A DNA stretch of 32,603 nt from Cyanophyceae cyanobacterium (GCA_050331735.1 JBHJGN010000059.1:1-32603), one strand, 5' to 3'. Positions 5,718-27,948 are shown, counted from the first letter of the stretch. Notes: generated from the sequence alone by a model not told the origin. Program-made: numbers and translations.

Positions 5718-5890
5718 ATGATTGTTAATCGTTGATTGTTGGAAGTAGAGAGGCAGATAATAATTCTTAGAGTTGTGGGTATAGCTATACGTTTTAGTTT
5801 CATGTTGATTGCTGATTGGATTGTTCATCGCCCTTCGACTACTAGGCTCAGATGTCTTACGGATTCAGGAAACGCTACATCGGCGATTAG

Positions 5891-7630: not shown

Positions 7631-8254
7631 GTGAATCAACTCAAAACCGAACTCCTGCGGTATAACGATGTTATCCGTCTAACTCCCAATGACTCTATCG
7701 CCTACGTGAAGCGAGGTATGATTTATTTCAAACTAGCTCAGATCGATGAATCGATTCAAGATTTCGATCGCGCTGCCACCCTTGATCCGCTCCTCACGCC
7801 CTATCTTTGGCAGCGCGGACTCTCGTACTATTATGCAGGGCGGTATGAAGAAGGAGCCGAACAGTTTACCGTTGATTTAACGGTCAATCCTCATGATGCC
7901 GAAGAAACGATCTGGTGCTACTTGTGTATGGCTTGCTGGCAGGGAGTTTCCGCCGCCCGGGATGCTCTGCTAGTGGTAGAGAAAGAGCCGCGCCTAATCG
8001 TCAGAGCAATTTACGAGCTTTATGCCGGGAGAGCAACGGTAGAGGAAGTATTAAAGTCGGGAAGTACTGATCGCGACCGGTTTTACAGCCATCTGTATGT
8101 TGGCTTGTACTATGAAGCAGCGGGCGAGAAAAAGCGCTCTCGCAACCACATTGCCCAAGCCGTTGCCAGCTTTAAGCTAACAGATTATATGTGGCATGTC
8201 GCTCGCGTTCACCAACAGCTTAGAGAAGATCACAGTCCAGTAGCCGAGCCTTGA
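7631..8254 (+). CDS. Tetratricopeptide repeat protein (NlpI-like)
   Basis: AYVKRGMIYFKLAQIDESIQDFDRA, YLWQRGLSYYY, DLTVNPHDAEE, FYSHLYVGLYYE and DYMWHVARVH. Confidence 0.85.
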   Translation: MNQLKTELLRYNDVIRLTPNDSIAYVKRGMIYFKLAQIDESIQDFDRAATLDPLLTPYLWQRGLSYYYAGRYEEGAEQFTVDLTVNPHDAEETIWCYLCMACWQGVSAARDALLVVEKEPRLIVRAIYELYAGRATVEEVLKSGSTDRDRFYSHLYVGLYYEAAGEKKRSRNHIAQAVASFKLTDYMWHVARVHQQLREDHSPVAEP

Positions 8255-8751
8255 TGCATTTGACCATCAATAAAAATTATTTCGATCTGTTTCCTCGGAT
8301 TCTCAGCATCAGTCCAGCGCCGCTTTTCAGAGTTGCCTCGCTGCCAAACCTGTTCTCCTGAAAAGCCCATAATTACATCAGTAATATACCTCAGAGTCAA
8401 AGGAGCATCATGACCAACCGAGTGCCAGTCATCCCCGTAATAATGACGATGATAAATTTCCTGCCATTTTTCTCTGGTGACGCTTTCTAGAACAAAGCTA
8501 GCAGATGATTCCCTCTGAGCTTGCTCAAAGCAGCCGCCGGAGCACTCTCCGGCGGAACTTTGAGTGGGTGTCTGACTGGGGGTTGCTATCGAAGGGGGAG
8601 CTGCTAGACTGGGGGACAGCGGAGAATAGCTACAGAAAACTAAGCGAATCGTTTGCCCTGATTCTGTTTGCATCAAACAGCTTTGAGACTGGGCAGAGTA
8701 AGTGATCCCGCTCGCTAAAAAAGCGATCGCCACGCCTTGAATTTTATGCAT
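8230..8751 (-). CDS. Hypothetical secreted protein with a Pro/Ser linker containing an in-frame repeat
   Basis: Signal-peptide-like N-terminus (AIAFLASGITYSAQSQ), C-x-M-x4-G-x2-I-x-L-x2-C motif, P/S/T linker, C-terminal globular segment; overlaps the 3' end of the TPR gene by 25 bp. Confidence 0.6.
   Translation of the reverse strand: MHKIQGVAIAFLASGITYSAQSQSCLMQTESGQTIRLVFCSYSPLSPSLAAPPSIATPSQTPTQSSAGECSGGCFEQAQRESSASFVLESVTREKWQEIYHRHYYGDDWHSVGHDAPLTLRYITDVIMGFSGEQVWQRGNSEKRRWTDAENPRKQIEIIFIDGQMHQGSATGL
8516..8566 (-). repeat. 51-bp hairpin dispersed repeat, copy B (inside the 8230-8751 ORF)
   Basis: Minus strand reads CACTCAAAGTTCCGCCGGAGAGTGCTCCGGCGGCTGCTTTGAGCAAGCTCA, 4 mismatches to copy A. 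Confidence 0.85.
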
Positions 8752-12000: not shown

Positions 12001-12387
12001 ATCCGAGGGACTGCCTCCCGTGACGCGACTGAAGATATTTTCCACCCCATCCGGGGTGCTGAAGTAGGCTCCGCGTCCTTCCCCTACGTTGAAATCTTGG
12101 AAACTGTGAAACAGATTCGCTCCCCGTTGAGCGCCGCCGTCGATGCGATCGCTCGGCGTTCCACGGATCGCTGCCGGGGTTACCACCGAGCTTTCTTCTG
12201 CTAAAGAATCATCCGGCGCTATCTGAGCTTCAGCACCGTCACTCACTGCGGTCAGCGCTCCTACTACAGCCATCAACCCTAATCGCAGCAGCCAGCACCG
12301 ACGGCGAGAGGGGGCGATCGCTAGATAGGCCTGCTGAGCTAGCAATCCTTCTCGATCCCGACCGTAGATGTTCATTTTGTGACTCAC
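9007..12387 (-). CDS. Filamentous haemagglutinin N-terminal (TPS) domain exoprotein with beta-helix repeats, paralog 1; start uncertain
   Basis: AEAQIAPD signal cleavage, GANLFHSFQDFNV, NIFSRVTGG, LINPNGILFG; GxAGxIxI repeats; C-terminal ANSC..GTFIITGAGGLP..LSRLC. Confidence 0.9.
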   Translation of the reverse strand: MSHKMNIYGRDREGLLAQQAYLAIAPSRRRCWLLRLGLMAVVGALTAVSDGAEAQIAPDDSLAEESSVVTPAAIRGTPSDRIDGGAQRGANLFHSFQDFNVGEGRGAYFSTPDGVENIFSRVTGGSPSDILGTLGVLGEANLLLINPNGILFGPNASLDVNGSFVGTTANGIRFGEEDMFSATNPEIPSQLLSVNPAALFFNQVATQPHHSIAVQGNLAVPTGQSLLLVGGTVSPTPNSTGSILVDGGALLAPGGRVELGGLAAAGTIGIREEGQWQLSFPREKARPDVALSNEAAVSVLADDGGSIVISAGSLEILGGSFLLAGIGSDLGASQVRSGNIDIQTTETVTLTDQSIIANVLEPGALGKGGNINISTGSLSVFDGARLVSNTVGQGNAGSIAINASESVAIEGRGEELISGVLSIAGDEAVGNAGSVTITTDVFSVTDGAGLDASTYGQGNAGSVFINASESVAIEGRNEEIFSGILGDVAEGAEGNGGNITINTGSLSVTHSGLSTSTYGRGNAGSISINASDVVLDNGVAFSNVSSQATGNGGSIDVNTGALSVTNNAQLSASTFGRGNTGNITINASESITLNNGVVAGFVSTGAEGNGGSIEITTGSLTIADGATIGVNTAGRGDAGSISIHARESVAIEGSSEVDTTLFDGLPGEGDGGRTRITTGSSEGSNGEAVSAVFGGVLSGAEGDGGKIEITTQVLSIADGAGLAARTFGRGDAGSITINASESVTVNDGRIFNGTEPQNPSDDGNAGDISITTSSLRMTNGAVLDASTFGRGNAGDITIDASESVVIEGKNEEIGSTLLSVVGEKARGNGGEIKITTDSLAIANEALLSSGTLGSGNAGSIIITANFLSLTNGAQINSRSLGSSNSGEIGIQVLGTLQAEDGEISTSSTQATGGAIDITAGDIRLRGDSDILTEVASGAGGGGDITLTANSIVLFDDSDVLAFARDGQGGDIRLDTPVFFGSRFQPAPESTDLNPLDGNESVNINASGAVSGEISLPDVSFLHNSPSELPVNVIDTETLIANSCVVPRDEQRGTFIITGAGGLPVRPGEASVSAYPTGTIQTVPNQDSSSHPDAAHSWQYGNPIIEPTGTYRLASGQLILSRLCSQP

Positions 12388-12440
12388 TTTCCTTCAGAAA
12401 CGAGCTTAATAGCGCTTGTCGCCAGTTCAAAAGCCAAGAC

Positions 12441-15400
12441 TTAACGACATCTCCGACTCAAAACGAGCTCTCCGCTGGCAAGCTGATGCACTCCCGTTGG
12501 CTCCACAATCGGATCGCCTGGTTGCCATAAACGAGAACCAGCGCTGGGAACTGACCGGATTGAGCCAGTCGGATAGGAAGAAACCGCCGCCTCGCCGGGA
12601 CGAACCGGTAGCCCTCCGGCCCCGGTAATAATAAACGTGCCTCGCTGACCGCCGCTGGGAACTACACAGCTATTAGCGATGAGGGTTTCGGTATCAATCA
12701 CGTTGATAGGCAGTTCGCTGAGGCTATTGTGCAGAAAGCTGACGTCCGGTAGGCGAATCTCTCCAGACACGGCACCGCTGGCATCGATATCAACGCGCTC
12801 ATTGCCATCGAGGGTATTGGGAGCGGCCTTTTCTGGGAAAGCCTGAAAGCGAGAGCCGAAAAATATCGGAGTTTGTAGCTCAATATCGCCTCCCTGACCG
12901 TCCTGAGCAAAGGCCAGAATATCGCTATCGTCGAAGGCCAAAATAGAGTTCGCCGTTAGAGTAATGTTGCCACCTCCCCCCGCACCGCTACTGACGCTGG
13001 TGCGAATATCGCTGCCCCGCAGACGAATATCTCCAGCGGTAATAGCGATCGCTCCTCCCGCCGCTTGGGTCGCACTCGTTAAGATTTGGCTGTTATCAGC
13101 CTGGAGAGTGCCAAAAACCTGAAGGTTAATTTCCCCGGAGTCTCGGGAGCCAAAACTGCGGCTTTCTATCTGCGCTCCGTCGGATAAGGACAGCAAGCGA
13201 GCGCTAATTTGAATTTCTCCCCCCTTGCCTGCCCCCGAAGCCCTGGCGCTGATTTGGCCGTTGTTGAGCAGTGAGAGGGAACCGGTGGTAATTTTAATCG
13301 GGCCTCCATCGCCTTCGGCTCCGGCAACGACTCCACTAAAGGCCGTTCCGTCGTTGGCGAAGGTGGCGTCGCTAGCGTTAATCGTAATCCGACCGGCATC
13401 TCCCCGTCCTAGGGTGCTGGCGGCTAGTCGAGCGTCATTGGTAACCAAGAGAGAACCTGTCGTAATCTGAATTGGGCCGCCATTGCCCTCAGCGGCTTCT
13501 GCGACACCGCTGAAGGCTAACCCGTTATCGAAGGTGGCGTCGCGGGCGTTAATCGTAATCCGGCCCGCATTTCCCCGTCCCGCCGTGCTGGCACTGAGTA
13601 AAGCATCCTCAGTAACCCGCAGGACATCCGTCGCGATCACAATTCCCCCTCCGTGGCCGTTGGCATTGGGTCCAACATCGCTGGAGACAAACCCTTCACG
13701 CTCGATAGCAACGCTCTCGCTAGCGTTAATCGTAATCTGGCCGGCGTCTCCTCTTCCTAACGTGGTCGCAGAGAGGAGAGCATCATCCGTCACCGAGAGC
13801 AAGCCGGTCGTAATCTCAATTCCGCCTCCGCGGCCCTCGGCATCCGCACCGACACTGCTAGAGACGGTACTAAATGAGGTGTCGCTCCTCCCCTCAATCG
13901 CGACGCTCTCGCTAGCGTTAATCGTAATCTGGCCCGCATTTCCTCGTCCGAAAGTAGTCGCCGTTAGTTGAGCTCCACTGTTGACGAAGAGAGAGTTTGT
14001 GTCAATTTTAATGCTGCCCGCGTCTCCCCGTCCCAAGGTGCCGGAAGACAGTTGAGCTCCACTTTCGAGAGCAAGAGACTCGGCGGTGATTTGAATCTTG
14101 CCCCCACTTCCCTCCGCATCAGAGCCAACATCGTTAGAAACAAATCCGTCAGTGGCGATCGCAATTTCGCGGGCATCGATCGTAATTTGGCCGGCATCTC
14201 CTCGTCCTAGAGTACTAACCGCCAGGAGAGCATTGTCCGTCACCGAAAGAGAGCCTGTGGTAATCTCGATGCCACTGCCGTTTCCCTCCGCATCAGAGCC
14301 AACACTGCTGGAGACGGTACTGAACAAGGTGTCGCTCCTCCCCTCAATCGCAACGCTCTCGCTAGCGCGGATCGTAATTTGACCTGAATCTCCTCTGCCA
14401 AAGGTGTTGGCAGATACTTGAGCCCCCTCTGTCACCCAGAGAGAGCCTGTGGTAATCTCGATGCTGCTGCCATTCCCCTCCGCATCAGAGCCAACGCCGT
14501 TGGAGATAGTACTAGCAAGACCAGCCAGGTTCTCGCTAGTGCCAGCAACGGTAACGTCGCGGGCGCTAATCGTAATTGGTCCCGCATTGCCCCGTTTAAA
14601 CGTATTGGCTGAGAGCTGACCGCCATTCGTTAACAAGAGCGAATCCGTGGTAATGTCAAGGCGGCCTGCATCTCCCTGTCCTAAAGTGCTAGAAGAGAGC
14701 TGAGCTTCATCCGCAATGACAAAAACGTTGGCGTTAATCTCGATGCGGCCACCCTGTCCCTCTGCCGCTTCTCCAACCCCGTTGAAGATAAACCCGCCCT
14801 CGGTGAAGGCAATGTTGCTAGCGTTAATCGTTAGGTTGCCTGCCTGTCCCTGTCCCGAAGTATTGGCCGTGAGGAGCGCGTCCTTCACCAGAAGAGAACC
14901 GGCAGTAATAGTGATATTGCCGCCCCGGCCCTCGGCTTCCGGACCGACATCGCTAGAGACAAAGGCAGCAGTGCTTAAGGCCACGTCGCTGGCGTTTATC
15001 TCTATTTGGCCCGCATCTCCTCGGCCAAACGTGCTAGCACTCAGTCGCCCCCCCTCGGCGATCGAGAGAGAACCTGTCGTGATGTCAATGTTGCCTCCAT
15101 TGCCTTCGGCTCCCGGTCCAACCCCGCTAAAGACTGTACTCACCAAATTCTCACTGCTGCCCTCGATCGCCATGCTCTCGCTGGCGTTAATGAGCAGGCG
15201 GCCTGAACTCCCCTGTTCCTCAGTACTGGCAAGTAACTGACCGCCATTGACGATCGAGAGGGAGCTAGTGGTAATTTCAACGTTGCCGCCATTCCCCCTG
15301 GCGTCGGCGGCTACCACATTGGCAATCAAGCTCGCCTCTGCCAGGGTGACGGTTTCTGCCGTCTCGATCACAATGTCTCCGGCCTGAGCTTGAGGGGCCT

Positions 15401-16295
15401 CTGTTTCAGAGTTGATGCCGGCTCCTAGCTGGCTTCCTCCCAAAACGGCTAAGTTCTGAGCATTAATCGCAATACTGCCTCTGTTACCAACGACATCAAC
15501 TGCCGCCCCATTGTTTAAAACCACATCGGCTCGCGTTCCCTCCTGTGGGAAAGACAATTGCCAATCCTCTCTCACTAGCTTTACGGTTCCCGCTGCGGCT
15601 AATCCGCCCAATTCCACTCGACCGCCCGGTGCCTGTAATTCTCCCCCATCAACGGCAATCGTGCCAGGAGCATCAGGAGTGGCAGCAACTTTCCCCCCCA
15701 CGAGCAGCAAACTCTGCCCCCGAGGAACGGCCAAAGTTCCTTGAACTGCAATAGCGGTGTTTGGCTGAGTGACCACTTGATTGAAGAAAAACGCGGCTGG
15801 ATTGACGGTGAGGAGCTGTGAGGGAACGGTTGGATCAGTCGCGCTAAACCAGTCCTCACCAAAGCCAATCCCGTTGGCTGTCGTGCCAACAAACGACCCG
15901 TTCACATCTAAGCTGGCGTTGGGTCCGAAGAGAAGGCCGTTGGGGTTGAGCAGAAACAGGTTCGCCTCTCCCAATACCCCTAAAGTGCCGAGAATCTCTG
16001 AGAGATTGCCCCCAGTAACGCGGCTAAAGATATTATCAACGCCGTCTGGATTACTAAAGTAGGCTCCGCGTCCTTCCCCTACGTTAAAGTCTTGGAAACT
16101 GTGGAACAGATTCGCTCCCCGTTGGGCGCCGCCGTCGATGCGATCGCTCGGCATCCCGCGAATCACGGTGGGAGATACTACAGAGCTTTCCTTCCCTAAC
16201 GTGCTGTCCGGCGTCATTTGGGCGCAGGCGCGCTCGCCACTGCTGATGCTCCCAATCACTACCCCTCCTAAAACAACCCACCGTACTCTCCCCAT
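12441..16295 (-). CDS. Filamentous haemagglutinin N-terminal (TPS) domain exoprotein, paralog 2
   Basis: Same architecture as paralog 1: ACAQMTPD, GANLFHSF, LNPNGLLFG, many STxGRGDAGxIxI repeats and the conserved C-terminus. Confidence 0.92.
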   Translation of the reverse strand: MGRVRWVVLGGVVIGSISSGERACAQMTPDSTLGKESSVVSPTVIRGMPSDRIDGGAQRGANLFHSFQDFNVGEGRGAYFSNPDGVDNIFSRVTGGNLSEILGTLGVLGEANLFLLNPNGLLFGPNASLDVNGSFVGTTANGIGFGEDWFSATDPTVPSQLLTVNPAAFFFNQVVTQPNTAIAVQGTLAVPRGQSLLLVGGKVAATPDAPGTIAVDGGELQAPGGRVELGGLAAAGTVKLVREDWQLSFPQEGTRADVVLNNGAAVDVVGNRGSIAINAQNLAVLGGSQLGAGINSETEAPQAQAGDIVIETAETVTLAEASLIANVVAADARGNGGNVEITTSSLSIVNGGQLLASTEEQGSSGRLLINASESMAIEGSSENLVSTVFSGVGPGAEGNGGNIDITTGSLSIAEGGRLSASTFGRGDAGQIEINASDVALSTAAFVSSDVGPEAEGRGGNITITAGSLLVKDALLTANTSGQGQAGNLTINASNIAFTEGGFIFNGVGEAAEGQGGRIEINANVFVIADEAQLSSSTLGQGDAGRLDITTDSLLLTNGGQLSANTFKRGNAGPITISARDVTVAGTSENLAGLASTISNGVGSDAEGNGSSIEITTGSLWVTEGAQVSANTFGRGDSGQITIRASESVAIEGRSDTLFSTVSSSVGSDAEGNGSGIEITTGSLSVTDNALLAVSTLGRGDAGQITIDAREIAIATDGFVSNDVGSDAEGSGGKIQITAESLALESGAQLSSGTLGRGDAGSIKIDTNSLFVNSGAQLTATTFGRGNAGQITINASESVAIEGRSDTSFSTVSSSVGADAEGRGGGIEITTGLLSVTDDALLSATTLGRGDAGQITINASESVAIEREGFVSSDVGPNANGHGGGIVIATDVLRVTEDALLSASTAGRGNAGRITINARDATFDNGLAFSGVAEAAEGNGGPIQITTGSLLVTNDARLAASTLGRGDAGRITINASDATFANDGTAFSGVVAGAEGDGGPIKITTGSLSLLNNGQISARASGAGKGGEIQISARLLSLSDGAQIESRSFGSRDSGEINLQVFGTLQADNSQILTSATQAAGGAIAITAGDIRLRGSDIRTSVSSGAGGGGNITLTANSILAFDDSDILAFAQDGQGGDIELQTPIFFGSRFQAFPEKAAPNTLDGNERVDIDASGAVSGEIRLPDVSFLHNSLSELPINVIDTETLIANSCVVPSGGQRGTFIITGAGGLPVRPGEAAVSSYPTGSIRSVPSAGSRLWQPGDPIVEPTGVHQLASGELVLSRRCR

Positions 16296-16457
16296 CGCGG
16301 CTGCTCATCCCCGTAGCTAACAATCTCTCCCTTTAATCTGACGGGTAATGGCTGCGTTCGCAACAGTTCATAGTCACTGGTTTGCTGGCGTTTGTCAGTC
16401 TGACCGCTTCCAGTCCGTTCCGGTTCAAGCCCTCGTTCGCTTCTACAAACGGCGGTT

Positions 16458-17255
16458 CTAAGCACGGCTTTTCATCTCGGCCAATTTCCGCTTCATGGCC
16501 CGAAAAGAGTCGGCTTGCACGATGTTAGCGACTTCACGAGCTTGACGAGAGCGGTCTATCTCAACAGTGGTGACTATTGGTGGCTCGGGCGCTGCTTGCT
16601 GTTGGCGATCGCTGCTCCTGCGAACCAAACTTTGGTAATATAGTATGTTGCCATTGCAGTCGCGAACCGCCCAGGTATTTTCTTCTACCCAAATTTTCTG
16701 GCCGTCTTGCCGATAGGCCTGATACTGAAATTTCACCTCGTTATTCTCTGCCAATAACTGTTTGAACTGAGCATGTTTGCCCGGTTCAACGAACACTTCT
16801 GTGATAGCTTTCAGGCTGCCGACCATAGCATCGGAAGAATCGTAGCCAAAAATGCGAGAGGTTGCTAAGTTAACCCAGACGTACCGATCGTCAGGCGTGA
16901 ATTGATAAATCCCCTCAGAGTGAGCGTCAAGGATTCTCCGGTAGTTTTCTTGGGCAACGCGGAGGGCTTCTACTTGTTGTTTGAGAGAGACGGTCATTCT
17001 CTTCAACGCTTGATTTTGTTCTGCTAGCTGCTGAGGGGTCTGCCACGCTTCTTCAACCAGCGGAGATACATCGTCATAGCCGTCACGAGAGCCTAACTCG
17101 ATTTTGCTGGCTTCTATCTGAGTGATGTCTAGAGCGTTCTCTTTAAGAGCGCATCCTAGCTGCTCTTTAAGCTTTCTCAAGACCGTCGCTTCTCGCTCAA
17201 CGCACAAAACAACTAGGTTTACCATCGGTTTTCTCTGTCTACTGAGCACTTTCAA
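16458..17255 (-). CDS. PAS-domain protein with a degenerate receiver-like N-terminus and helical C-terminal tail; likely start ATG 17225
   Basis: VVLCVEREATVLRKLK resembles REC beta1-alpha1 without the acidic pair; coiled coil; PAS (EGIYQ..YVWVN..IFGY..YRQDGQKIWVEENTWAVRDCNGNILYY); tail VEIDRSRQAREVANIVQADSF. Confidence 0.8.
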   Translation of the reverse strand: MKVLSRQRKPMVNLVVLCVEREATVLRKLKEQLGCALKENALDITQIEASKIELGSRDGYDDVSPLVEEAWQTPQQLAEQNQALKRMTVSLKQQVEALRVAQENYRRILDAHSEGIYQFTPDDRYVWVNLATSRIFGYDSSDAMVGSLKAITEVFVEPGKHAQFKQLLAENNEVKFQYQAYRQDGQKIWVEENTWAVRDCNGNILYYQSLVRRSSDRQQQAAPEPPIVTTVEIDRSRQAREVANIVQADSFRAMKRKLAEMKSRA

Positions 17256-17755
17256 ACATCATACTGAATGTTACTTAATTAGTGACTCAGAAAGTCCTTG
17301 AGACAGGTTTGAAGTAAGTTAATTGTGCTTGTCGGGGCAAATACTCGTTTTCCAGCAGGAAAAATGCCTAAATTTGAGGATAGCGAGGGCCAGAAATTTG
17401 ACAGTTTTAACCATCCGCTCTATCGGTTTTAATGTTAGTAAACATCAGCCTGTGTAGAAAAAATTATTGTTGATTCTGCTTTGAGTAGCTCAATGATTCT
17501 GCTCGTCCTTTACGGCATTATTGGCAGATTTAATGCCTGTTACTCACTTGTCAACAAATGCCTATTTAATTTCCTCGGTCTGTATTGCTAGAGAGTGACT
17601 TATTTTGTGACAATCTTAGCGTTGAAGTTGCCTTGTCCGTTATAGGATTGACTGGAAATTCGTTGCATCAGTTTAGCTCTCATATAGACAGATAGTTACT
17701 GAGTGAAAGGATTCCTCTTTATTTTGTTGAGAGTTAAAGGTTGAAAAGGAAGTTT

Positions 17756-18841
17756 ATGACCAAGAAATCCCGCCAAAAAAATCCCAAGAGCAGCGAATCT
17801 AAGTTTTTTCGGCTAGGACTTAAGCGACAATACCTTTTTCCTTTTGCTTTATTCTGTGTGGCGACAGTAATCTTAAGTTTTCTCGCTGTCAAACCAGATC
17901 CTCAGCGCCTCCAGTCAGAGTCTATTCCAGAGCAGTCAATTCTTCTGGCCCTGGCCAATGAACCCATTCAACCGATTCCCCTCCAGCTAGAACTTGACCC
18001 CCAGAAGGTGGCGCTGGGACAAAAGCTGTTCAGCGATGTGCAGCTATCTGGCAACAATACGATTTCCTGCGCAAGCTGCCATAACCTCAGCGACAATGGA
18101 GCCGATCGCCTAGCGCGTTCAGTGGGGATCAACGATGCTGTTGGTGTCATCAATGTCCCGACGGTGTTTAACAGCGGCTTCAATTTTCGCCAGCACTGGG
18201 ATGGGGTCGTCGAAACTCTCGAGGAGCAGGTCGAGCGACCGATTCGCTCAACCCTGGCGATGGATTCGGACTGGCCAGAAATTGTGAACAAGCTCCAGCA
18301 GTCATCCGAGTACCGCCTTCTGTTTGGGCAACTCTACGAGGAGGGGATCGCAAGCAGCAGCATCAAAGAGGCGATCGCCACGTTTGAACGCTCCCTCTAC
18401 ACGCCCAACTCCCGCTTCGACCAGTATCTACGCGGCGACGAAACGGTGCTGAGTCCTCAAGAAAAAGAAGGCTACCGTCGCTTCAAAGCCTATGGCTGTG
18501 TAAGCTGCCATCAGGGAGTTAACGTTGGGGGAAATCTTTATCAAAGGTTTGGCCTGATGGGAGATTACTTCAAAGATCGCGGGAACGTCACCGAAGCCGA
18601 CCTTGGCCGGTACAACGTCACCGGGGAAGAAAGCGATCGCCACGTCTTTAAAGTGCCTAGCCTGCGCAACATCGCCCTCACCAATCCTTACTTTCATGAT
18701 GGTTCTGCCCAAACCCTTGATGAAGCCGTGCAGGTGATGGGTAAATATCAGCTCGGGCGACAGCTCTCGGCAGAAGATATCGATCTGATTGTCACCTTTC
18801 TCAACACTCTTACGGGCGAATATCAAGGCAATCCACTATGA
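17756..18841 (+). CDS. Diheme cytochrome c peroxidase (CcpA/MauG family) homologue, membrane-anchored
   Basis: Two CxxCH motifs (CASCH, CVSCH), QHWDG, FKVPSLRNIALTNPYFHDGS, distal Met in AVQVMGKYQLG, N-terminal TM segment. ATG 17756 follows AGGA; the ORF track starts at TTG 17741. Confidence 0.92.
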   Translation: MTKKSRQKNPKSSESKFFRLGLKRQYLFPFALFCVATVILSFLAVKPDPQRLQSESIPEQSILLALANEPIQPIPLQLELDPQKVALGQKLFSDVQLSGNNTISCASCHNLSDNGADRLARSVGINDAVGVINVPTVFNSGFNFRQHWDGVVETLEEQVERPIRSTLAMDSDWPEIVNKLQQSSEYRLLFGQLYEEGIASSSIKEAIATFERSLYTPNSRFDQYLRGDETVLSPQEKEGYRRFKAYGCVSCHQGVNVGGNLYQRFGLMGDYFKDRGNVTEADLGRYNVTGEESDRHVFKVPSLRNIALTNPYFHDGSAQTLDEAVQVMGKYQLGRQLSAEDIDLIVTFLNTLTGEYQGNPL

Positions 18842-19908
18842 AAAAAATCTCCTGGCGCAATCTATGTATTCCTCTGTTCGCCGTGATTCTTGTCGTTGCT
18901 CTGATTGTGAAAAGCTTACCGGTCTACTTCGGGAACCACCGACAATATCAACAGGCTTTAGGGCTTCAACGGGAAGAAAAAGCGCTGCTCAGCCAAGAAC
19001 TACTTAAGTCTAGATACGAACTATTTTTCTCCTACGACCCGTTAGTTGCCTACATCACCGCTCTCAAGAATCTGCAAAATCAGCTCCAGGTTTTACCTCC
19101 GTTGCCCGCTGACAAAAAACGACAGTACCAGGCACTGCTACAGGCAGATACGGCTGCGCTAGAGCAGGTCGAAAATCTGTTGGAAGAGTTTAAAATCCAA
19201 AATTCTACTCTGAAGAACTCCCTGCGCTATCTTCCTTCCTTAGCTACAGAAAGCTCCAATTACAGATTCTCAGAAGTTTTCAGCGACCTCGCCCAGAATT
19301 TGCTGCTTTACGAGCTCACCTCCAGCGAAGAGCTGTCTGCGACGATTAAAGCCAGTCTCGAGCAGCTTCAGCAGCTCCAAGAACAAAGCTTTGGCGAAGA
19401 ACGCGCTTTAATCGAGCTGGCTAGCCGTCATGCCGCCATTATTCTCAACTATAAGCCCAAGGTTGACCAAGAAGTTCAGCAACTCCTAGAGCAGCTCTCC
19501 CCGCAGCAGAACGGTAAGCTCAGCATGGCCTATCACTCCTATTACCAAGAAGCTGTGGCCGCTGCCAATACCTATCTCCGGTTTGCCTATGGGGGCTTTC
19601 TGCTGCTGCTCGGCTGGATTGCCTATGCCATTATTAGCCACATTTTGAAATTGCTCAACAAGAGCCAGCAGGCAGAAGCAAAACTTCAGCAGATGAATGA
19701 GGAGTTAGAGGCCAGAGTTAAACAACGCACCGCTCAATTGAGTGAACTCTTAGCATTAGAATGCCTCTCCGAGAAAAAACAGCGCCGAGAAAAAGAGAAG
19801 CTCAAAAAACAGCTTGAGCAGCTTCAAGGGGAATTAGGAACTTCTCGAGATAGCTTTATTAGTCTTAATCCGTCGACAGAATCAACGTTTAGAAATGAGT
19901 CAACTTAG
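18838..19908 (+). CDS. DAHL-type extracytoplasmic sensor protein (2 TM) with only a coiled-coil cytoplasmic tail
   Basis: TM1, all-helical region with LLKSRYELFFSYDPLV and FKIQNSTLKNSLRYLP, TM2, then S-helix-like LQQMNEELEARVKQRTAQL; ATGA overlap with the peroxidase gene. Confidence 0.75.
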   Translation: MKKISWRNLCIPLFAVILVVALIVKSLPVYFGNHRQYQQALGLQREEKALLSQELLKSRYELFFSYDPLVAYITALKNLQNQLQVLPPLPADKKRQYQALLQADTAALEQVENLLEEFKIQNSTLKNSLRYLPSLATESSNYRFSEVFSDLAQNLLLYELTSSEELSATIKASLEQLQQLQEQSFGEERALIELASRHAAIILNYKPKVDQEVQQLLEQLSPQQNGKLSMAYHSYYQEAVAAANTYLRFAYGGFLLLLGWIAYAIISHILKLLNKSQQAEAKLQQMNEELEARVKQRTAQLSELLALECLSEKKQRREKEKLKKQLEQLQGELGTSRDSFISLNPSTESTFRNEST

Positions 19909-20039
19909 AACCTCAACTAGCCAATAGGCTAGGTGAAATGTGGACAATTCGCTGCTCCGGATTTTCCTCAGTTGGGAGAGACGACTGCTTTTCTATTGAA
20001 TAACACCGACTGCCCTTTCACACATCATCACAATCAACC

Positions 20040-21872
20040 ATGTTTAACAACGTCTCTGAACAAACAATGCATCGGGTCAGGTGGTTGTTAACGCTTGGCT
20101 GGCTACTCTTAATTGCCGTCCAATTTTACGATCCCCTCTCTCCCTGGCTGACAGACCCGAGTAATAACCTGAGTCCCCTCCGTCTCGAGACCGGCGTTTG
20201 CGTGAAGGTGCAGGGGGTTTGCCTGGTAGAACAGCCTTACCCGGTGGGAGCACGGCTGTTTTGGGCCACGATTGTTCCTTGCTCGATTATTATTCTCTTA
20301 GTTTTCGGACACGAACTGTGGCGACGCATCTGCCCGCTATCCTTTGTTTCTCAGCTTCCCCGCGCCCTCGGAATCCAAAGACGCTCTAGAAAAGCTAAAA
20401 TCAAGCAGAATTCTTGGCTCGGTCGCAACTATTTGTACTTTCAGTTTGCCCTATTCTACCTCGGTCTCTGCGTACGGATTCTGTTTGTGAATACAGTCGG
20501 GTGGGCGCTGGGCTCTTTCCTGCTGTTAACAATTAGCGCTGCCATTCTAGTCGGCTATCTCTACGAAGGCAAGTCCTGGTGTAACTACTTCTGTCCGATG
20601 GCTCCTGTCCAAAAGATTTATAGTGAACCGGGAGGACTCTTGACCAGCGCTGCCCACACCAACCGCAGCCAAACAATCACTCAATCGATGTGTCGGGTGG
20701 TCGATACAGACGGGAAGGAGCAGAGTGCCTGTGTTGCCTGTCAAACTCCCTGTATTGATATTGATGCAGAGCGGACCTATTGGGACAGCATCAACCGACC
20801 TGATCGCCAGTTACTCTCCTATGGCTATATTGGCTTAGTGTTTAGCTTCTATTTTTACTACTATCTCTATGCTGGTAACTGGGACTACTATTTTTCGGGA
20901 GCCTGGACTCACGAAGAAAAGCTCTTGAGTAACCTATTCGCTCCCGGATTTTACCTGTTTGAAACGCCGATTCCAATTCCGAAGCTTGTCGCCGTTCCCC
21001 TCACTCTCGGTGGCTTTGGTGTGGGAAGCTACTGGCTCGGGCTTCAGGGCGAAAGGCTCTACAAAATTTATCTACGGCGCAGAGGAAAGTATTCTCAAGA
21101 GCTGCTGCGCCATCGTATGTTTACCTTAGCGACGGCTTTTGTTTTTAATCTGTTTTTCTGGTTTGGTGGTCGTCCGATGATTCGGCTGCTGCCCCCCACG
21201 CTGCAAACTCTCTTTACCGTCATCTGCGCGGTTCTGAGTGGATTATGGCTATCCTACACCTGGAAGCGAAGCCCAGAACAGTACCAGCGCGAAAAGCTAG
21301 CCGACTTACTCAGAAGGCAGCTTGGCAAACTGCACCTCAGCGCTGAGTACCTAGAAGGACGCTCGTTAGACCAGCTCGATGCCAACGAAATCTATATTCT
21401 CGCCAAGGTATTACCTCGTTTTACAAAAGCGCAGCGATTTCAGGCTTATAAGGGAGTTCTTCAAGAAGCGTTAGAAGAAGGCTATGTGCAGTCGGCTAGC
21501 AGCTTAGAAGTCCTCAAGCAATTGCGTTTAGAACTAGATATGAGCGATCGAGACCACCAAACACTTCTCACAGAACTTGGCATTGAAGAACCATCACTTT
21601 TCGATCCGCAGCGGCAACGAACCCGCGAAGATTGGGCGCGGCTACAGGGCTTTCGCCATCGTCTTCAGGGGTTAGTCAAACCAAAACGTCGCCGTTCTGC
21701 TAAAGGCTTAGGTCGGGAACTGCTCCAGGTGGTGACGAAGGAAAAATCCCTAGAAGAGGTGTTTGTGCAGGAGAAAGCCTGGCGATCGCTGAGTCGAGAA
21801 TACGCGCTCACGCCCGCGGAACAGGCAGAAATTCTCGCAGACCTCAGTCATTCAGCCAAGCACGACCAATGA
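20040..21872 (+). CDS. Polytopic membrane 4Fe-4S-binding protein (NapH/MauN/FixG-like) with a cytoplasmic helical C-terminal domain
   Basis: Multiple TM helices; WRRICP, WCNYFCP (CxxxCP) and SACVACQTPC (CxxCxxxC) motifs. Confidence 0.8.
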   Translation: MFNNVSEQTMHRVRWLLTLGWLLLIAVQFYDPLSPWLTDPSNNLSPLRLETGVCVKVQGVCLVEQPYPVGARLFWATIVPCSIIILLVFGHELWRRICPLSFVSQLPRALGIQRRSRKAKIKQNSWLGRNYLYFQFALFYLGLCVRILFVNTVGWALGSFLLLTISAAILVGYLYEGKSWCNYFCPMAPVQKIYSEPGGLLTSAAHTNRSQTITQSMCRVVDTDGKEQSACVACQTPCIDIDAERTYWDSINRPDRQLLSYGYIGLVFSFYFYYYLYAGNWDYYFSGAWTHEEKLLSNLFAPGFYLFETPIPIPKLVAVPLTLGGFGVGSYWLGLQGERLYKIYLRRRGKYSQELLRHRMFTLATAFVFNLFFWFGGRPMIRLLPPTLQTLFTVICAVLSGLWLSYTWKRSPEQYQREKLADLLRRQLGKLHLSAEYLEGRSLDQLDANEIYILAKVLPRFTKAQRFQAYKGVLQEALEEGYVQSASSLEVLKQLRLELDMSDRDHQTLLTELGIEEPSLFDPQRQRTREDWARLQGFRHRLQGLVKPKRRRSAKGLGRELLQVVTKEKSLEEVFVQEKAWRSLSREYALTPAEQAEILADLSHSAKHDQ

Positions 21873-22696
21873 CCACAATGATCTCGATTCACTCTTACCG
21901 AGGCGGAACGGGTAAATCCAATTTGGTCGCAAATCTCGCTACGAGTCTTGTCCTTCAGGGACGGCGGGTCGCTATTCTCGACGCGGATATCCAATCTCCC
22001 GGCATTCACCTGCTGTTTGGATTAGACGAGACACAGATCAAGTTGACTCTCAACGATTACCTCTGGGGGCGCTGTCCTCTGTCAGAAGTGGTCTATGATG
22101 TTAGTCCCGTCCTCGATCCTGCTCCTGCCGCTAGCAACCCTGCCAGCAGTGCTTCTCCCACGGCTCAAGCAGTTGGCGATCGCGCTCGCCTTTACCTTGT
22201 GCCCTCCAGCATGAAAGCCACAGAGATTGCTACGGTTCTCAGTGAGGGGTACGATGTCGAACTCCTCTACAGGGGATTGAATGAACTCCGCCACCTGCTC
22301 GCACTAGACTATCTGTTGATTGATACTCATCCGGGTTTGAGTGAAGAAACGCTGCTGGCGATCGGGTTATCGCACCTGATCCTCGTTGTGCTGCGTCCCG
22401 ACTACCAGGATTATCAAGGCACTGCGGTTTTTGTCGAAGTGGCGCGAGAACTGGACGTGTCTCGAATGATGCTGGTTATGAACAAAGTTTTGTTAGAGTT
22501 TGATGCTCAAGCACTACAGCAGCAGCTCGAAACGACCTATCAAGTGCCAGTAGCGGGAGTTTTGCCAGTTTCTACCGAGATGATTCGTCTTGGGAGTCAA
22601 GGCATTTTCTGTTTGCGTTACCCCGAGGCCCTCCTCACTCAAGAAATTAACCGCATCGTTCAAAAAATCCAGGAGGTTGTTGACGTTCAAAGTTAA
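21869..22696 (+). CDS. MinD/ParA family ATPase (variant Walker A RGGTGKS)
   Basis: HSYRGGTGKSN, ILDADIQSPG, YLLIDTHPG; ATGA overlap with the Fe-S gene. Confidence 0.9.
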   Translation: MTTMISIHSYRGGTGKSNLVANLATSLVLQGRRVAILDADIQSPGIHLLFGLDETQIKLTLNDYLWGRCPLSEVVYDVSPVLDPAPAASNPASSASPTAQAVGDRARLYLVPSSMKATEIATVLSEGYDVELLYRGLNELRHLLALDYLLIDTHPGLSEETLLAIGLSHLILVVLRPDYQDYQGTAVFVEVARELDVSRMMLVMNKVLLEFDAQALQQQLETTYQVPVAGVLPVSTEMIRLGSQGIFCLRYPEALLTQEINRIVQKIQEVVDVQS

Positions 22697-23580: not shown

Positions 23581-24708
23581 CTAATAGGATAAAAACTCCT
23601 CTAAATGAGGTACGTCTACCCAACAGTTATTCTCATGGGAGCGATGGGTGAGATCCATCAACAGTTGAGAGTAAATTCCTTCTCGTAAAGAAGGCGTCAC
23701 GGATTGCCCCCCATCAATTCCCTGCACCCAGCGATCTACGACGCGGATGAAGGGGGCTAACCGTCCGTCAGCATAAACCTGTGGGAACGCTAAACGCTGA
23801 GGAATGTCCACCGTGGTGAAATTTTTTCCCGCGGTGGCTGCGTGGAGGCGGAACCCGTGGACGTAATCTTTCAAATTGTCGCTGCCTAACACTAGCGTCC
23901 CGCGATCGCCATACACTTCGACCCAGTGTCCTCGTCCTTGATACGTTACCGAACTCAACGTCACCTGACACGGAGTTCCATCGGCTAGTTCTAGCATCAG
24001 CAGGCAGGTGTCGTCCGCATCTACAGGCTTCAGTTCTCCCCCCGCTGCTGGATCGGGGCGTTCGGGGATCGCGCAGCTCAAGCGGGCACACAGCCGTTTC
24101 ACGGGACCAAACAGCCAGCTAATATAGTCAAACGTATGGGAACCAATCGCCCCTAGCGCCCCGCCACCCCGGCTTTTAACGGAATACCAATTCCAGGAGC
24201 GTTCGGGATTGGCGCGGCTGGTTACCAACCAGTCGATTTTGATCAACCGTTTAGTGCCCACGTAGCCTCGGTGGAGATGTTCCGCAAAATACTGCCACTC
24301 CGGAACATAGCGAAACTCGAAATCCGCCGCTGTCACCACACCTTTCTGGGCAGCAAGCTGATAGAGTTCTTTGGTTTGCTGCACCGATAAATTCATGGGC
24401 TTTTCTAACAGAAGATGCTTCCCGGCGGTTAAGGCGGCTTTGGCCATCTCGTAGTGTAAAAAGGGAGGCGTAGAAATGCTGACTCCATCTACTTCCGGCA
24501 GCGACACCAGCTTTTCTAAGTCATTTGAGGCGTAAGGAATATCGTTTTCTTCAGCGATCGCCTGGGCTTTTTGTAGATCTCTGTTGTAGACAGCAACCAC
24601 TTCAGTCCGATGATGTTTCTGCAAGCCAGGTAAATGTATTTTTTGACCAAAGCCTGTTCCGATTACCGCCACTCCAAGTTTACGCTGGTTTTTTTGAGAA
24701 CTGTTCAT
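23581..24708 (-). CDS. Gfo/Idh/MocA family oxidoreductase
   Basis: GVAVIGTGFG Rossmann motif, GKHLLLEKP, GGGALGAIGSHTFD. Confidence 0.92.
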   Translation of the reverse strand: MNSSQKNQRKLGVAVIGTGFGQKIHLPGLQKHHRTEVVAVYNRDLQKAQAIAEENDIPYASNDLEKLVSLPEVDGVSISTPPFLHYEMAKAALTAGKHLLLEKPMNLSVQQTKELYQLAAQKGVVTAADFEFRYVPEWQYFAEHLHRGYVGTKRLIKIDWLVTSRANPERSWNWYSVKSRGGGALGAIGSHTFDYISWLFGPVKRLCARLSCAIPERPDPAAGGELKPVDADDTCLLMLELADGTPCQVTLSSVTYQGRGHWVEVYGDRGTLVLGSDNLKDYVHGFRLHAATAGKNFTTVDIPQRLAFPQVYADGRLAPFIRVVDRWVQGIDGGQSVTPSLREGIYSQLLMDLTHRSHENNCWVDVPHLEEFLSY

Positions 24709-24981
24709 GGGTTAGTTGAAGATTTCAAAAAACATTAAAACGTTCGGTTTTGCCGACGCAATTAATACCAAAAAAGCTTTTGTTTTTTGTCTATTTGCGA
24801 TTGAAATTATTGATTTTCCTGTGTAAAACAATTAGCTATTCAGCCTTAATGAAGCATTCAATTGTTCACTGTGTTCGTCCTACATGCCGCTAAAATAATA
24901 CTATAATAGGCTTAAGCCGGTATAAAAAATAGACATAATTCGTATAGACGACTCTGCTCAAGAATAGGAGTTTATTAGAAA

Positions 24982-27948
24982 TTGGTTACTCAAGTCTCTA
25001 GTCAAAGCTACGAAGCCAAAACTCAGGAAATTGCTAAACAGCTCCTGGCAGCTACCCGAGACCGTTCTTTCTTTGCTCAAATGCGCGATCGCCTGCGGCC
25101 CGATGACCGACTGCTTGACTGGGCCATGAGCAATCCGGGTTTGCGAGTTCAGCTATTCCGCTTCATCGACTGTTTGCCCACTCTCCACAGTAAAGCCGAA
25201 ATCGCCCGCCATTTGCAGCAGTATTTGGGTGCAGAGTCAGTAGAACTGCCCGCAGCGCTCAAGGGCATTCTTAATTTTACCGATCCCACTTCTCCCCCCG
25301 CCCAAGTAGCGGCAGCCACAATCTCGAAAACGGTAGAAACGCTGGCTCAAAAATACATTGCCGGAGAGACCATCGAGCAGGTTCTCACCACAGTAGAACG
25401 CCTACGAAAGGAAAAAATGGCGTTCACCATCGATCTCTTAGGAGAAGCCGTGATCGCCGAAGCCGAAGCGCAAGACTATCTCCAGGGATATCTAGAACTC
25501 ATCGCTCGCCTCACCGAGGAGGCGAAGCAGTGGAAAACAATCGAGGAAATTGATTTAGCAGACGGGGAAGCACTGCCGAGAGTGCAGGTGTCGGTTAAGT
25601 TGACCGCCTTCTATTCTCAATTTGACCCCATCGCTCCGCAAACCAGCAAACAGCAGGTCTGCGATCGCATTCGGGTGCTGCTGCGCCACGCCCAAGCTCA
25701 AGGAGCCGCTGTTCACTTTGATATGGAACAGTACGTGTATAAAAACTTAACTTTGGCGATCCTCAAAGAACTGCTCCTCGAAGAAGAGTTTCGGCACCGA
25801 ACCGACATCGGCATTACGCTACAGGCGTATCTGCGCGATTCCTACGAGGATCTTCAAGACCTGATCGCGTGGGCCAAGGAACGCAGCTATCCAGTGACGG
25901 TACGATTGGTCAAAGGAGCCTACTGGGACCAGGAAACCATCAAATCTCTACAACATCACTGGCCGCAGCCCGTTTACGATGATAAAGCCGCCACCGACGC
26001 GAACTTTGAGCGAATGACCACCCTGCTGCTAGAGAACCATGAGTATCTGTACGCCGCTATCGGAAGTCATAACGTGCGCTCGCAGGCGCTGGCGATCGCC
26101 ATTGCCAACACCCTTAATATTCCCCGTCGCCGCTTTGAGATGCAGGTTCTCTACGGCATGGGCGAACAGCTCGCCAAAGCGCTCGTACAGCAGGGACATC
26201 GCGTACGGGTCTATGCTCCCTACGGGAAACTGCTCCCCGGGATGGCTTACCTGATCCGGCGTTTGCTAGAGAATACGGCCAACAGTTCCTTCCTGCGGCA
26301 GAATTTAGAAGAGCGCCCCATCGAGGAGTTGATTGCTCCCCCCGTTGCCCAAGAGCAAGGGCACGAGCACCACGGCACCTCCTTTCCTAATGCCCCAGAT
26401 ACCGACTACGCCGATGTCGCCCAAAGAGAGAAAGCTCAGCAGGCACTCGCTCAGGTCAGAAACTCTTTCGGGAAAATCTATTGGCCGCTTATAGACGGCC
26501 AGTTCGTCGAAACCAACCGCACGATCGACTCGGTGAATCCTTCCCGCTCAGATGAGGTGGTGGGGAAAGTGGGTCAGATCGCTATCGAGCAAGCTCAGCA
26601 GGCTCTAGAAGCGGCTCAAGCAGCGTTTCCCCAGTGGAGCCGCACCTCCGTCAGAGAGAGAGCCGGAGTACTGCGCAAAGCAGCTCAAATCATGGCAGAA
26701 CGGCGGTACGAACTCGGCGCCTGGATCTGCTTAGAAGTCGGCAAAGTTTTGAGTGAGGCGGATGCGGAAGTGTCAGAAGCGATTGATTTTTGCCGCTACT
26801 ACGCTGATGAAATGGAGCGCCTCGACCAGGGCTACAGCTATGACGTGGCCGGGGAAACGAATCGCTATGTATACCAGCCGCGAGGAGTGGCGGTGGTCAT
26901 TTCTCCCTGGAACTTCCCGCTGGCGATCGCCACTGGCATGACGGTGGCAGCGCTGGTCGCGGGCAACTGTACGCTCCTCAAGCCTGCCGAAACGTCTTCA
27001 GTTATTGCGGCTCAGCTAGCCGAGATTTTGAGGCTGGCAGGAGTGCCCAACGGAGTCTTTCAGTACATTCCGGGCAAAGGTTCAGAAGTAGGAGCCTACC
27101 TGGTTAAGCATCCCAATGTCCACCTGATCGCCTTTACGGGCTCGCGGGAAGTGGGATGCCGAATTTACGCGGATGCTGCCGTTCTTCAACCCGGCCAGAA
27201 GCACCTCAAGCGGGTCATTGCGGAGATGGGCGGTAAAAACGCCATTATCGTGGACGAAAGTGCCGATCTCGATCAGGCTGTAGCCGGAGTGGTCAGGTCG
27301 GCGTTTGGCTACAGCGGTCAAAAATGTTCAGCCTGCTCGCGGGTGATCGTGCTATCTCCGGTGTACGAGGCTTTTGTGAAACGGCTGGTAGAAGCGGCTC
27401 GCTCCCTTAACGTCGGCGCGACGGACAATCCGAGCACCACTGTTGGACCCGTTATTGATGCCACCGCCCGCGATCGCATTCTCGAATACCTCGAGCAAGG
27501 ACGCGCCGAAGCCGAAGTGGCCTTGGCGATGGAAGCTCCTGGCGGTGGCTATTTTGTCGGTCCCACCGTCTTCAAAAATGTTCCAGCCGAGGCGGCGATC
27601 GCCCAAGAGGAAATCTTTGGTCCGGTGCTAGCCGTGCTGCTGGTCAAGGATTTTGATGAAGCGCTAGCGGTGGCGAACCGAACCGATTACGCTCTGACAG
27701 GAGGACTCTATTCTCGGACTCCTCACCATATCGAACGGGCAACGGCAGAATTTTCTGTGGGGAATCTTTACATTAACCGCACTATCACCGGAGCGATAGT
27801 CTCCAGACAACCTTTCGGCGGCTTTAAACTCTCTGGCGTTGGCTCTAAGGCAGGCGGTCCCGACTACCTGCAACAGTTCCTCGAACCCCGCACGATTACT
27901 GAAAATACTCAGCGACAGGGATTTGCCCCCATAGAGGGAGCCGAGTAA
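24982..27948 (+). CDS. putA: Bifunctional proline dehydrogenase / P5C dehydrogenase
   Basis: PRODH motifs (DLLGE, VRLVKGAYWD, SHN, YLIRRLLEN) fused to ALDH motifs (SPWNFP, FTGS, EMGGKN, GQKCSA, EEIFGP); TTG start with AGGAG RBS. Confidence 0.96.
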   Translation: MVTQVSSQSYEAKTQEIAKQLLAATRDRSFFAQMRDRLRPDDRLLDWAMSNPGLRVQLFRFIDCLPTLHSKAEIARHLQQYLGAESVELPAALKGILNFTDPTSPPAQVAAATISKTVETLAQKYIAGETIEQVLTTVERLRKEKMAFTIDLLGEAVIAEAEAQDYLQGYLELIARLTEEAKQWKTIEEIDLADGEALPRVQVSVKLTAFYSQFDPIAPQTSKQQVCDRIRVLLRHAQAQGAAVHFDMEQYVYKNLTLAILKELLLEEEFRHRTDIGITLQAYLRDSYEDLQDLIAWAKERSYPVTVRLVKGAYWDQETIKSLQHHWPQPVYDDKAATDANFERMTTLLLENHEYLYAAIGSHNVRSQALAIAIANTLNIPRRRFEMQVLYGMGEQLAKALVQQGHRVRVYAPYGKLLPGMAYLIRRLLENTANSSFLRQNLEERPIEELIAPPVAQEQGHEHHGTSFPNAPDTDYADVAQREKAQQALAQVRNSFGKIYWPLIDGQFVETNRTIDSVNPSRSDEVVGKVGQIAIEQAQQALEAAQAAFPQWSRTSVRERAGVLRKAAQIMAERRYELGAWICLEVGKVLSEADAEVSEAIDFCRYYADEMERLDQGYSYDVAGETNRYVYQPRGVAVVISPWNFPLAIATGMTVAALVAGNCTLLKPAETSSVIAAQLAEILRLAGVPNGVFQYIPGKGSEVGAYLVKHPNVHLIAFTGSREVGCRIYADAAVLQPGQKHLKRVIAEMGGKNAIIVDESADLDQAVAGVVRSAFGYSGQKCSACSRVIVLSPVYEAFVKRLVEAARSLNVGATDNPSTTVGPVIDATARDRILEYLEQGRAEAEVALAMEAPGGGYFVGPTVFKNVPAEAAIAQEEIFGPVLAVLLVKDFDEALAVANRTDYALTGGLYSRTPHHIERATAEFSVGNLYINRTITGAIVSRQPFGGFKLSGVGSKAGGPDYLQQFLEPRTITENTQRQGFAPIEGAE

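Follow-up and report, generated by a model that had tools for sequence, protein, structure and literature searches.

The gene of the chemoreceptor DocB/Tlp10 of Campylobacter jejuni, which we take to be the founding DAHL receptor, lies immediately downstream of the gene of the dihaem peroxidase DocA. MinD is marked by a signature lysine in the motif KGGxGKT. ATPases of the ParA/MinD type work with short activating peptides, as in the PpfA–TlpT pair of Rhodobacter, and FleN/FlhG is a MinD-type ATPase that acts as a regulatory switch on a partner. Membrane proteins of the NapH/MauN/CcoG type combine two CxxxCP motifs with two ferredoxin-type four-cysteine motifs. One review states that C. jejuni does not owe its peroxide resistance to these peroxidases (PMC3156733), and a 2020 review names extra cyanobacterial MinD homologs, Synpcc7942_0220 of Synechococcus and All2033 and All2797 of Anabaena (59.4% identical to each other), and raises their function as an open question (PMC7766704). 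Here, a locus of five genes (positions 16458–22696) is described in a 32,603-nucleotide stretch of DNA from a Cyanophyceae cyanobacterium (GCA_050331735.1 JBHJGN010000059.1:1-32603), the whole of which is called the window. The five genes encode a PAS protein, a peroxidase-like protein, a DAHL protein, an iron-sulfur (Fe-S) membrane protein and a MinD-like ATPase, and together represent a six-gene signalling cluster in reduced and rearranged form. In the reading that we prefer, at a probability of roughly 55%, the tail of the PAS protein docks on the ATPase, the ATPase acts with the Fe-S protein, and the haem/DAHL pair senses redox state outside the membrane.

All five open reading frames were confirmed with the coordinates and strands of the first-pass annotation of this DNA, and a recheck of the overlap sequences verified that both overlaps (17756–18841/18838–19908 and 20040–21872/21869–22696) spell ATGA. 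The gene on the minus strand (16458–17255) has a PAS match in Pfam and NCBIfam. The open reading frame finder starts it at TTG 17255, and translation from the ATG at 17225 yields a 255-residue protein (16458–17225) composed of a receiver stump, a coiled coil, a PAS domain and a tail. The four plus-strand genes encode a membrane-anchored dihaem cytochrome c peroxidase-like protein (17756–18841), an identity already proposed for it and upheld by a CCP_MauG match and two CXXCH motifs; a truncated DAHL receptor (18838–19908) with a DAHL match and membrane helices at residues 9–27 and 255–273; a polytopic Fe-S membrane protein of a short form (20040–21872) with invariant cysteines and a sub-threshold Fer4_5 match; and a MinD-fold ATPase of the HS[YF]RGGxGKS family, Fe-S-linked subclade, with a ParA/CbiA-type P-loop (21869–22696). 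No kinase, cyclase, MCP or DNA-binding domain was found above the Pfam and NCBIfam cut-offs in any of the five proteins, as had been stated. A promoter scan returned 8 sites against 5.2 expected, and a terminator scan 7 against 7.4. A 7,284-base contig of sequencing run X1 spans positions 16000–21188 with no difference from the window, and the stop of the DAHL gene and its junction with the Fe-S gene are therefore not assembly errors. The sole run that contains the window DNA is labelled a stromatolite metagenome, and none with RNA was listed; X1 is possibly the source sample, and the contig match is not independent evidence.

In its six-gene form, one strand of the cluster encodes a GAF-kinase, a response regulator consisting of receiver, PAS domain and tail, the Fe-S protein and the ATPase; the opposite strand encodes the peroxidase and a DAHL chemoreceptor. 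The whole cluster is present in the genomes of all four species of genus g165, so that the five genes do co-occur elsewhere, and a DNA-level search did not find it in the other 57 of 61 genomes of the family. A metagenome scan with P0189, one of the longer DAHL homologs (source label Xenococcaceae), retrieved two loci with all five genes and the sixth. The window genome belongs to a cyanobacterium without another member of its family among the genomes compared; in the trees, its peroxidase and ATPase are sister to the g165 proteins with supports of 98/90 and 100/99, respectively. Histidine kinase, complete receiver and the signalling domain of the chemoreceptor are all present in the intact form. 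In the window, the kinase is gone, approximately 74 receiver residues including the phospho-acceptor region are deleted, the chemoreceptor sequence beyond approximately residue 335 (HAMP and the signalling domain) is missing, and the Fe-S/ATPase pair has been relocated and now stands behind the DAHL gene. Because the g165 relatives keep the kinase, receiver and chemoreceptor domains, the absence of output domains is a derived state, and the proposal that the system was built in place of a two-component relay is not supported.

The 19 longer DAHL homologs among the matches listed are all DAHL chemoreceptors of 657–675 residues, with 48–54% identity over 94% of the window protein; homology to their HAMP and signalling hairpin stops at approximately residue 335, with no remnant after it. 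The best match in the genome to the g165 cluster kinase has 48% identity in the kinase core alone. A GAF kinase encoded in the window at 28233–30128 was considered as the missing cluster kinase and rejected, having only 28% identity over the ATPase domain. When DNA remnants of the chemoreceptor domain, the kinase and the ancestral spacers were sought, 14 of 15 comparisons fell within the shuffle range or were marginal, and one (the kinase-ccp spacer of L202) exceeded 100 shuffles. Since the lost domains leave no trace in the DNA, the truncations are not of recent date. The first-pass annotation would have counted it against its own proposal if DAHL and PAS were recent pseudogenes of ordinary kinases; this is half the case, for both genes are truncated derivatives, but their parents are a chemoreceptor and a response regulator. 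Two X1 contigs of equal depth (14.7) have a geometry that leaves no room for the missing domain between a truncated DAHL gene and an Fe-S gene. This geometry, with no single record bridging the junction, suggests that a second, more diverged organism in X1 shares the arrangement, and on its Fe-S contig 25 of the 33 listed differences lie at third codon positions.

The window PAS protein is the ortholog of the 327–337-residue response regulator and is shortened by the receiver deletion. Its first 23 residues (17157–17225, minus strand) form a receiver stump in which 15 of 23 residues are identical to the N-terminus of the ortholog; other residues stand in place of the acidic pair, and the stretch bearing the phospho-acceptor aspartate has been deleted, so that a complete receiver is lacking. 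The PAS domain (16596–16952, minus strand; residues 102–220, TIGR00229) evolves 2–5 times faster than its orthologs in relative-rate tests. The protein ends in an unannotated helical tail (16461–16568, minus strand) with the motif EID...V..I....F, the predicted partner of the ATPase. Both the stump and this conserved tail of approximately 40 residues had been overlooked in the first-pass annotation.

The tail recurs with the ATPase. The protein encoded immediately before the second family ATPase of this genome closes with the same motif, and the tail profile finds two proteins in the genome at E < 1e-5, each beside one of the two family ATPases. A tail lies within approximately 8 kb at 38 of 58 ATPase loci, a count that includes the rows used to train the profile, and occurs in 46 of 49 genomes with the ATPase, compared with 3 of 252 without it, two of these three matches being weak. 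As the profile was trained on ATPase loci, genomes that gave no training row were counted separately, and 18 of 21 such ATPase-positive genomes contain a tail (11 of 14 without genus g3). A tail is also found at 11/11 further ATPase loci of family f12 and at 3/3 plasmid loci checked, including those of Rhizobium and Deinococcus. No p-value is given for this co-occurrence because kin genomes are not independent.

The tail matches 2,350 proteins (representatives at 50% clustering) and has no Pfam family above cut-off, no solved structure and no usable Atlas feature match. In 79 scanned proteins (26 from the loci and 53 longer ones of 150 listed representatives), it follows Cache/HAMP, CHASE2, PAS, GAF, Tll0287, cNMP or receiver domains. 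Among the best five families per protein, one of the 79 has a full kinase and none has a cyclase, GGDEF/EAL or helix-turn-helix (HTH) domain. Being placed C-terminal to sensory domains, the tail sits in the position of an output domain. The subtypes of tail and ATPase also correspond. Of 77 tails, the seven closest to that of the window (scores 82–93, the next being 68) come from exactly the seven other genomes with an Fe-S-linked ATPase, and in three of these genomes the tail gene is separated from that of the ATPase, by megabases or by lying on a different contig. Against the window tail, those next to the second ATPase paralogs in G068, G228 and the window genome score 44, 41 and 40. Tail subtype follows ATPase subclade, a subtype-specific pairing, and tail, ATPase and Fe-S protein have stayed together since becoming unlinked. 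The ATPase had been proposed as the output of the system, and the family does look like an output of sensors, given the adjoining tail proteins, the position of the tail and the matching subtypes.

When the ATPase dimer was folded together with the tail, ATP and Mg, the predicted complex scored 0.36, compared with 0.00 for three controls; the runs agree in at least 80% of contacts, and the partner has a predicted local distance difference test (pLDDT) value of at least 67. The mark that it passes separates 116 of 157 solved pairs from all but 2 of 215 mismatched ones, yet those that pass with a score of 0.60 or less are 18 solved pairs and both mismatches, which makes the prediction a weak pass. 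The prediction may also echo the MinD–MinE complex. Two other settings of the tail were observed. In the small genome with locus L168 (5643–10558), an operon of a hybrid kinase and two tail proteins (HisKA-REC-tail and cNMP-tail) lies 1.2 Mb from the single ATPase gene, which is divergent from glucokinase; should the strain be tractable, this would be an uncomplicated system for genetic work. At L173, L221 and L222, short HAMP-tail proteins that match Fe-S-linked ATPases adjoin DUF6272/STAS-type partner-switch and receiver-domain genes.

The ATPase has a MinD/ParA fold with a deviant Walker A motif, a switch I DxD and a switch II; D38, D40 and D152 are invariant, and Arg11 replaces the signature lysine in 70/70 aligned sequences. 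The best Foldseek match is archaeal MinD (1hyq, E 8e-17), with FleN/FlhG as the second-ranked fold. The protein misses the TIGR01968 and TIGR01969 cut-offs (49.3 vs 212.9 and 78.2 vs 201.75 bits, respectively). By alignment, the family ends at the last core helix with no conserved extension in 58 rows, so that the C-terminal membrane-targeting helix is absent. Members occur in 49 of 301 genomes, with up to five matches per genome. Alignment A1 leaves out 7 tandem or kin rows. In the ATPase tree (12 near-duplicate rows dropped), the eight Fe-S-linked ATPases (three from sampled loci, four from g165 and that of the window) form one group (98/77), and the Fe-S gene thus travels with a single ATPase subclade.

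Other neighbours recur at ATPase loci. At the second ATPase locus of the window genome (G000:C95:12980-20074), genes of AAA_35/PAS-tail, ATPase, glutaminase, SpoIIE phosphatase, DUF6272-type and STAS-type proteins stand in a row, and a glutaminase gene follows the ATPase in six further loci. At L082:3767-6901, a ccp-DAHL kinase pair has next to it the N-terminal 21 residues of the ATPase joined to a piece of a glutaminase, and then an intact Cache-HAMP-PAS-tail gene; this is a deleted copy of the ATPase-glutaminase cassette. A winged-helix protein of 90–116 residues is encoded within two genes of the ATPase at L011, L013, L014, L029, L031, L032, L037, L038 and L054, and was not found in the window genome by tblastn. 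DUF7005 together with a two-cNMP protein, and AAA_35, are further recurrent neighbours.

The Fe-S protein contains nine invariant cysteines (54, 61, 98, 181, 185, 218, 231, 234 and 238), arranged as one full CxxxCP motif, one single-cysteine variant and one Cx12Cx2Cx3C motif. Its Fer4_5 score of 20.9 bits is below the cut-off of 22; no NCBIfam match was found, nor a clear PDB match in a comparison that barely covers the membrane part. The label of a NapH/MauN-type protein consequently stands as a loose resemblance (CxxxCP, weak Fer4_5) and fails on the motif set and the NCBIfam match. Other members of this cyanobacterial family add cNMP or EF-hand domains. Truncation of the gene, considered because some homologs have 954–960 residues, was ruled out since the closest homologs have 623–654 residues; the window copy is approximately 20 residues shorter than these.

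The peroxidase-like protein keeps both CXXCH motifs, the axial Met, the electron-transfer (bridging) Trp and the distal Gln; at residue 168, it has Ala at the position of the catalytic Glu in the NPxEM motif, and the distal His is absent. Trp, Gln, Met and Glu are presumed to have the roles usual in such peroxidases, on which a literature search gave no paper. Val occupies the Glu position in three g165-type proteins. Glu is kept in 24 of 39 DAHL-linked peroxidases and in 39 of 42 others (fragments L151, L164 and L167 left out, duplicate L114 dropped), and the three unlinked proteins without it come from contigs that end before the next gene is visible. In the tree, the window peroxidase falls in a DAHL-coupled clade, and its four close orthologs among the 301 genomes of the phylum (E ≤ 1e-107) all precede a DAHL gene.

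A DAHL gene is next to ccp in 39 of 83 distinct loci from many phyla, with a 4-base overlap in 23 of 38 measured pairs, as in the window. The outputs of these 39 other DAHL partners are kinases (23), GGDEF/EAL (6), adenylate cyclases (4) and Y1_Tnp-like domains (3); of the rest, one is not displayed, one is cut by a contig end and one is DAHL-only. The window DAHL protein lacks the cytoplasmic output domain that is typical of peroxidase-linked DAHL receptors. No intact family ATPase was found in the DNA around the 39 loci; an Fe-S homolog is present at one of them and a tail protein at another. The peroxidase-DAHL pair is therefore a module independent of the ATPase, found in several phyla with varied outputs. 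The linear relay from haem through DAHL and Fe-S protein to the ATPase that the first-pass annotation had drawn is not demonstrated. The best-conserved part of the window DAHL protein is the cytoplasmic coil below its second membrane helix (19657–19800, plus strand; 36–38 of 48 residues identical, compared with 105–110 of 216 in the DAHL domain), and no tail was found on this protein. In the clade that bears the cluster, the tip of the chemoreceptor hairpin is eroded in 19/19 listed homologs; L188 and L189, the two nearest peroxidase-chemoreceptor pairs outside the cluster, have a canonical tip and keep the Glu. Among cyanobacterial DAHL receptors encoded behind ccp, those of P0003–P0022 and of L101, L112, L117, L190, L213 and L214 have Y1_Tnp (IS200-transposase-like) as the sole domain on the cytoplasmic side. 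The peroxidases paired with them group in a single clade, and in L190 the next gene is of Rieske type; the Y1_Tnp domain looks like a domesticated transposase fold in output position.

The locus is thus the meeting of two widespread, uncharacterised modules, peroxidase-DAHL and tail-ATPase, and not one proven five-step relay. In the mechanism that we propose, the C-terminal tail of a sensor protein would bind the ATP-bound ATPase dimer and switch it as MinE does MinD. It is most probably the tail of the PAS protein, and not DAHL, that connects to the ATPase. In the intact cluster, the kinase would control the tail-ATPase step through the receiver; in the window, this control would have been lost, and the PAS domain or a constitutive tail would remain. 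The Fe-S membrane protein would be the partner or target of the ATPase. The haem protein, with weak catalysis or none, would be a co-sensor of the DAHL domain, and the two likely form a separate sensor of redox state outside the membrane. Several observations weigh against this reading. The Fe-S gene adjoins the ATPase in only 3 of 58 sampled loci and in 4 of 16 sampled genomes with both genes; the branch uniting the Fe-S-linked ATPases (98/77) is not starred, and the whole cluster is known from two lineages only. One shared descent may explain the co-segregation of tail and ATPase subtypes, and tail-ATPase binding is weakly predicted. Loss of catalysis is not general, since most DAHL-linked peroxidases (24/39) keep the Glu. 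In addition, the PAS gene is accelerated in 6/6 relative-rate tests (p ≤ 0.006) and has lost the coiled linker before the tail, so that the window copy may no longer be regulated or made.

The acceleration of the PAS gene would fit a decaying island, in which DAHL and PAS are remnants under relaxed selection, the haem protein stands alone and the Fe-S/ATPase pair works by itself. The PAS region has 37–48 window-specific changes, compared with 9–19 in its sister, and DAHL is accelerated in 2 of 4 tests; kinase, receiver core and chemoreceptor domain were lost separately, and a complete DAHL-only protein is found in just 1 of the 39 other DAHL partners. However, every frame is open and the deletions are in frame. 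The peroxidase and the ATPase are accelerated in none of six tests each and the Fe-S protein in one of six, and the tail is better kept (15–17 of 27 residues identical to orthologs) than the PAS core (47–52/110) and the linker (5/20). The age of the cuts and the predominance of third-position differences on the Fe-S contig of the second X1 organism also speak against decay, which we hold to be rather unlikely.

Streamlining offers another account of the same losses, in which the haem/DAHL pair, once part of the cluster, exchanged chemotaxis for a connection via its coil to the Fe-S protein and ATPase, and the kinase, receiver and chemoreceptor domain were shed as unnecessary. The eroded tip and replaced Glu of the cluster clade, both intact in L188 and L189, point in this direction, as do the coil, 75–79% identical and above the DAHL domain (~50%), and the arrangement apparently shared by the second X1 organism. 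An Fe-S homolog also lies four genes from the peroxidase-DAHL pair in L083, and a tail protein stands beside one such pair in L082. This integrated pathway would nonetheless be a single evolutionary event; an intact ATPase is missing at 39/39 other peroxidase-DAHL loci and at 13 further loci, the DAHL protein has no tail, and the two halves of the intact cluster are divergently transcribed, each with its own output. It is possible but improbable. The ATPase could instead be a spatial organiser that positions division, chromosome or cargo, with tail proteins as cargo adaptors and not signalling regulators. Its MinD fold agrees with such a role, and so would the extra MinD homologs of Synechococcus and Anabaena, Synpcc7942_0220, All2033 and All2797, which we presume from identity levels and synteny to belong to this family; a ParA-like protein is said, in the title of a paper cited by the 2020 review, to influence chromosome distribution. 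The patchy distribution (49/301 genomes) with up to five matches per genome, the absence of both the membrane-targeting helix and the signature lysine, and neighbours of a signalling or metabolic kind (glutaminase, SpoIIE/STAS, cNMP and winged-helix proteins) make this role very unlikely.

The preferred reading, a reduced cluster with a tail-switched ATPase, places the locus in a wider setting. The tail-ATPase pair would be a widespread and probably undescribed route of signal passing. Many Cache/HAMP, CHASE2 and PAS proteins that seem 'output-less' would thereby gain a candidate function, as would the extra cyanobacterial MinD homologs. The locus adds a pairing at the level of subclades among tail subtype, ATPase subclade and Fe-S protein. 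Testing the idea would be inexpensive, with a peptide of 40 residues and a soluble ATPase of 27 kDa, and paralog pairs are built-in specificity controls. The series from intact chemoreceptor through eroded tip to deletion bears on the role of peroxidase-DAHL pairs such as DocA/DocB. A far larger claim, that thousands of sensor tails switch an Arg-Walker MinD-type ATPase as an unrecognised bacterial output class and that this locus is also a phosphorylation-free envelope redox pathway, is doubtful; if true, a haem/DAHL receptor was captured from chemotaxis, wired to the Fe-S protein and ATPase, and then shed the kinase, receiver and chemoreceptor tip. A literature search found neither the tail nor the RGGTGKS-type ATPase family as a signalling output, although subscription papers were mostly outside the search and a two-hybrid or knockout result could exist; nor was a relevant paper found on the DAHL domain paired with cytochrome c or cytochrome c peroxidase, and All2033 and All2797 turned up in the one review alone.

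Elsewhere in the window, two tandem two-partner-secretion (filamentous haemagglutinin-like) exoprotein genes (9007–16295; 1126 and 1284 residues) lie directly downstream of the PAS gene. Genes of a copper amine oxidase, a TetR regulator and a DevBCA-type exporter occupy 167–6639, and an open reading frame at 8230–8751 has no Pfam match. A Gfo/Idh/MocA oxidoreductase gene and putA follow the cluster (23581–27948). The same genes flank the ccp-chemoreceptor pair in G309 (L189:4943-13245), hinting that this setting is the old address of the pair.

Comparison with described systems shows which parts of the locus are familiar. The circadian input proteins CdpA and IrcA were considered as relatives and set aside, as the available parts of PMC5520375 and PMC8400943 contain no link. 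The haem protein resembles the CcpA/YhjA dihaem peroxidases, with 9qdt (E 1e-85) and 1iqc (E 5e-73) as best PDB sequence matches and with both haem motifs, Trp, Gln and Met kept; it differs in the change of Glu to Ala, the missing distal His and its DAHL-coupled clade. The Fe-S protein shares with NapH/MauN/CcoG a polytopic membrane architecture, CxxxCP and a weak Fer4_5 match, but has one full CxxxCP, one single cysteine and one four-cysteine motif instead of two ferredoxin motifs, and its family is cyanobacterial with cNMP or EF-hand extensions. FleN/FlhG is close to the role proposed for the ATPase, whereas the window has no flagellar context, no FleQ-type partner and a different P-loop. 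MinD-MinE is alike in the MinD fold and in a short partner helix that is weakly predicted to dock on the ATP dimer. The window ATPase differs from MinD in its ~22% identity, the Arg in place of the signature lysine and the missing C-terminal membrane helix, and its partner peptide differs from MinE in being the C-terminus of Cache/HAMP, CHASE2, PAS, GAF, Tll0287, cNMP or receiver sensors. Like DocA/DocB, the window pair has the peroxidase gene immediately upstream, and its nearest relatives are a peroxidase and a DAHL chemoreceptor. Unlike DocA/DocB, it has lost the signalling domain of the chemoreceptor, which in g165 is eroded; another residue stands in for the catalytic Glu; and the neighbouring genes encode an Fe-S protein, an ATPase and a tail protein.

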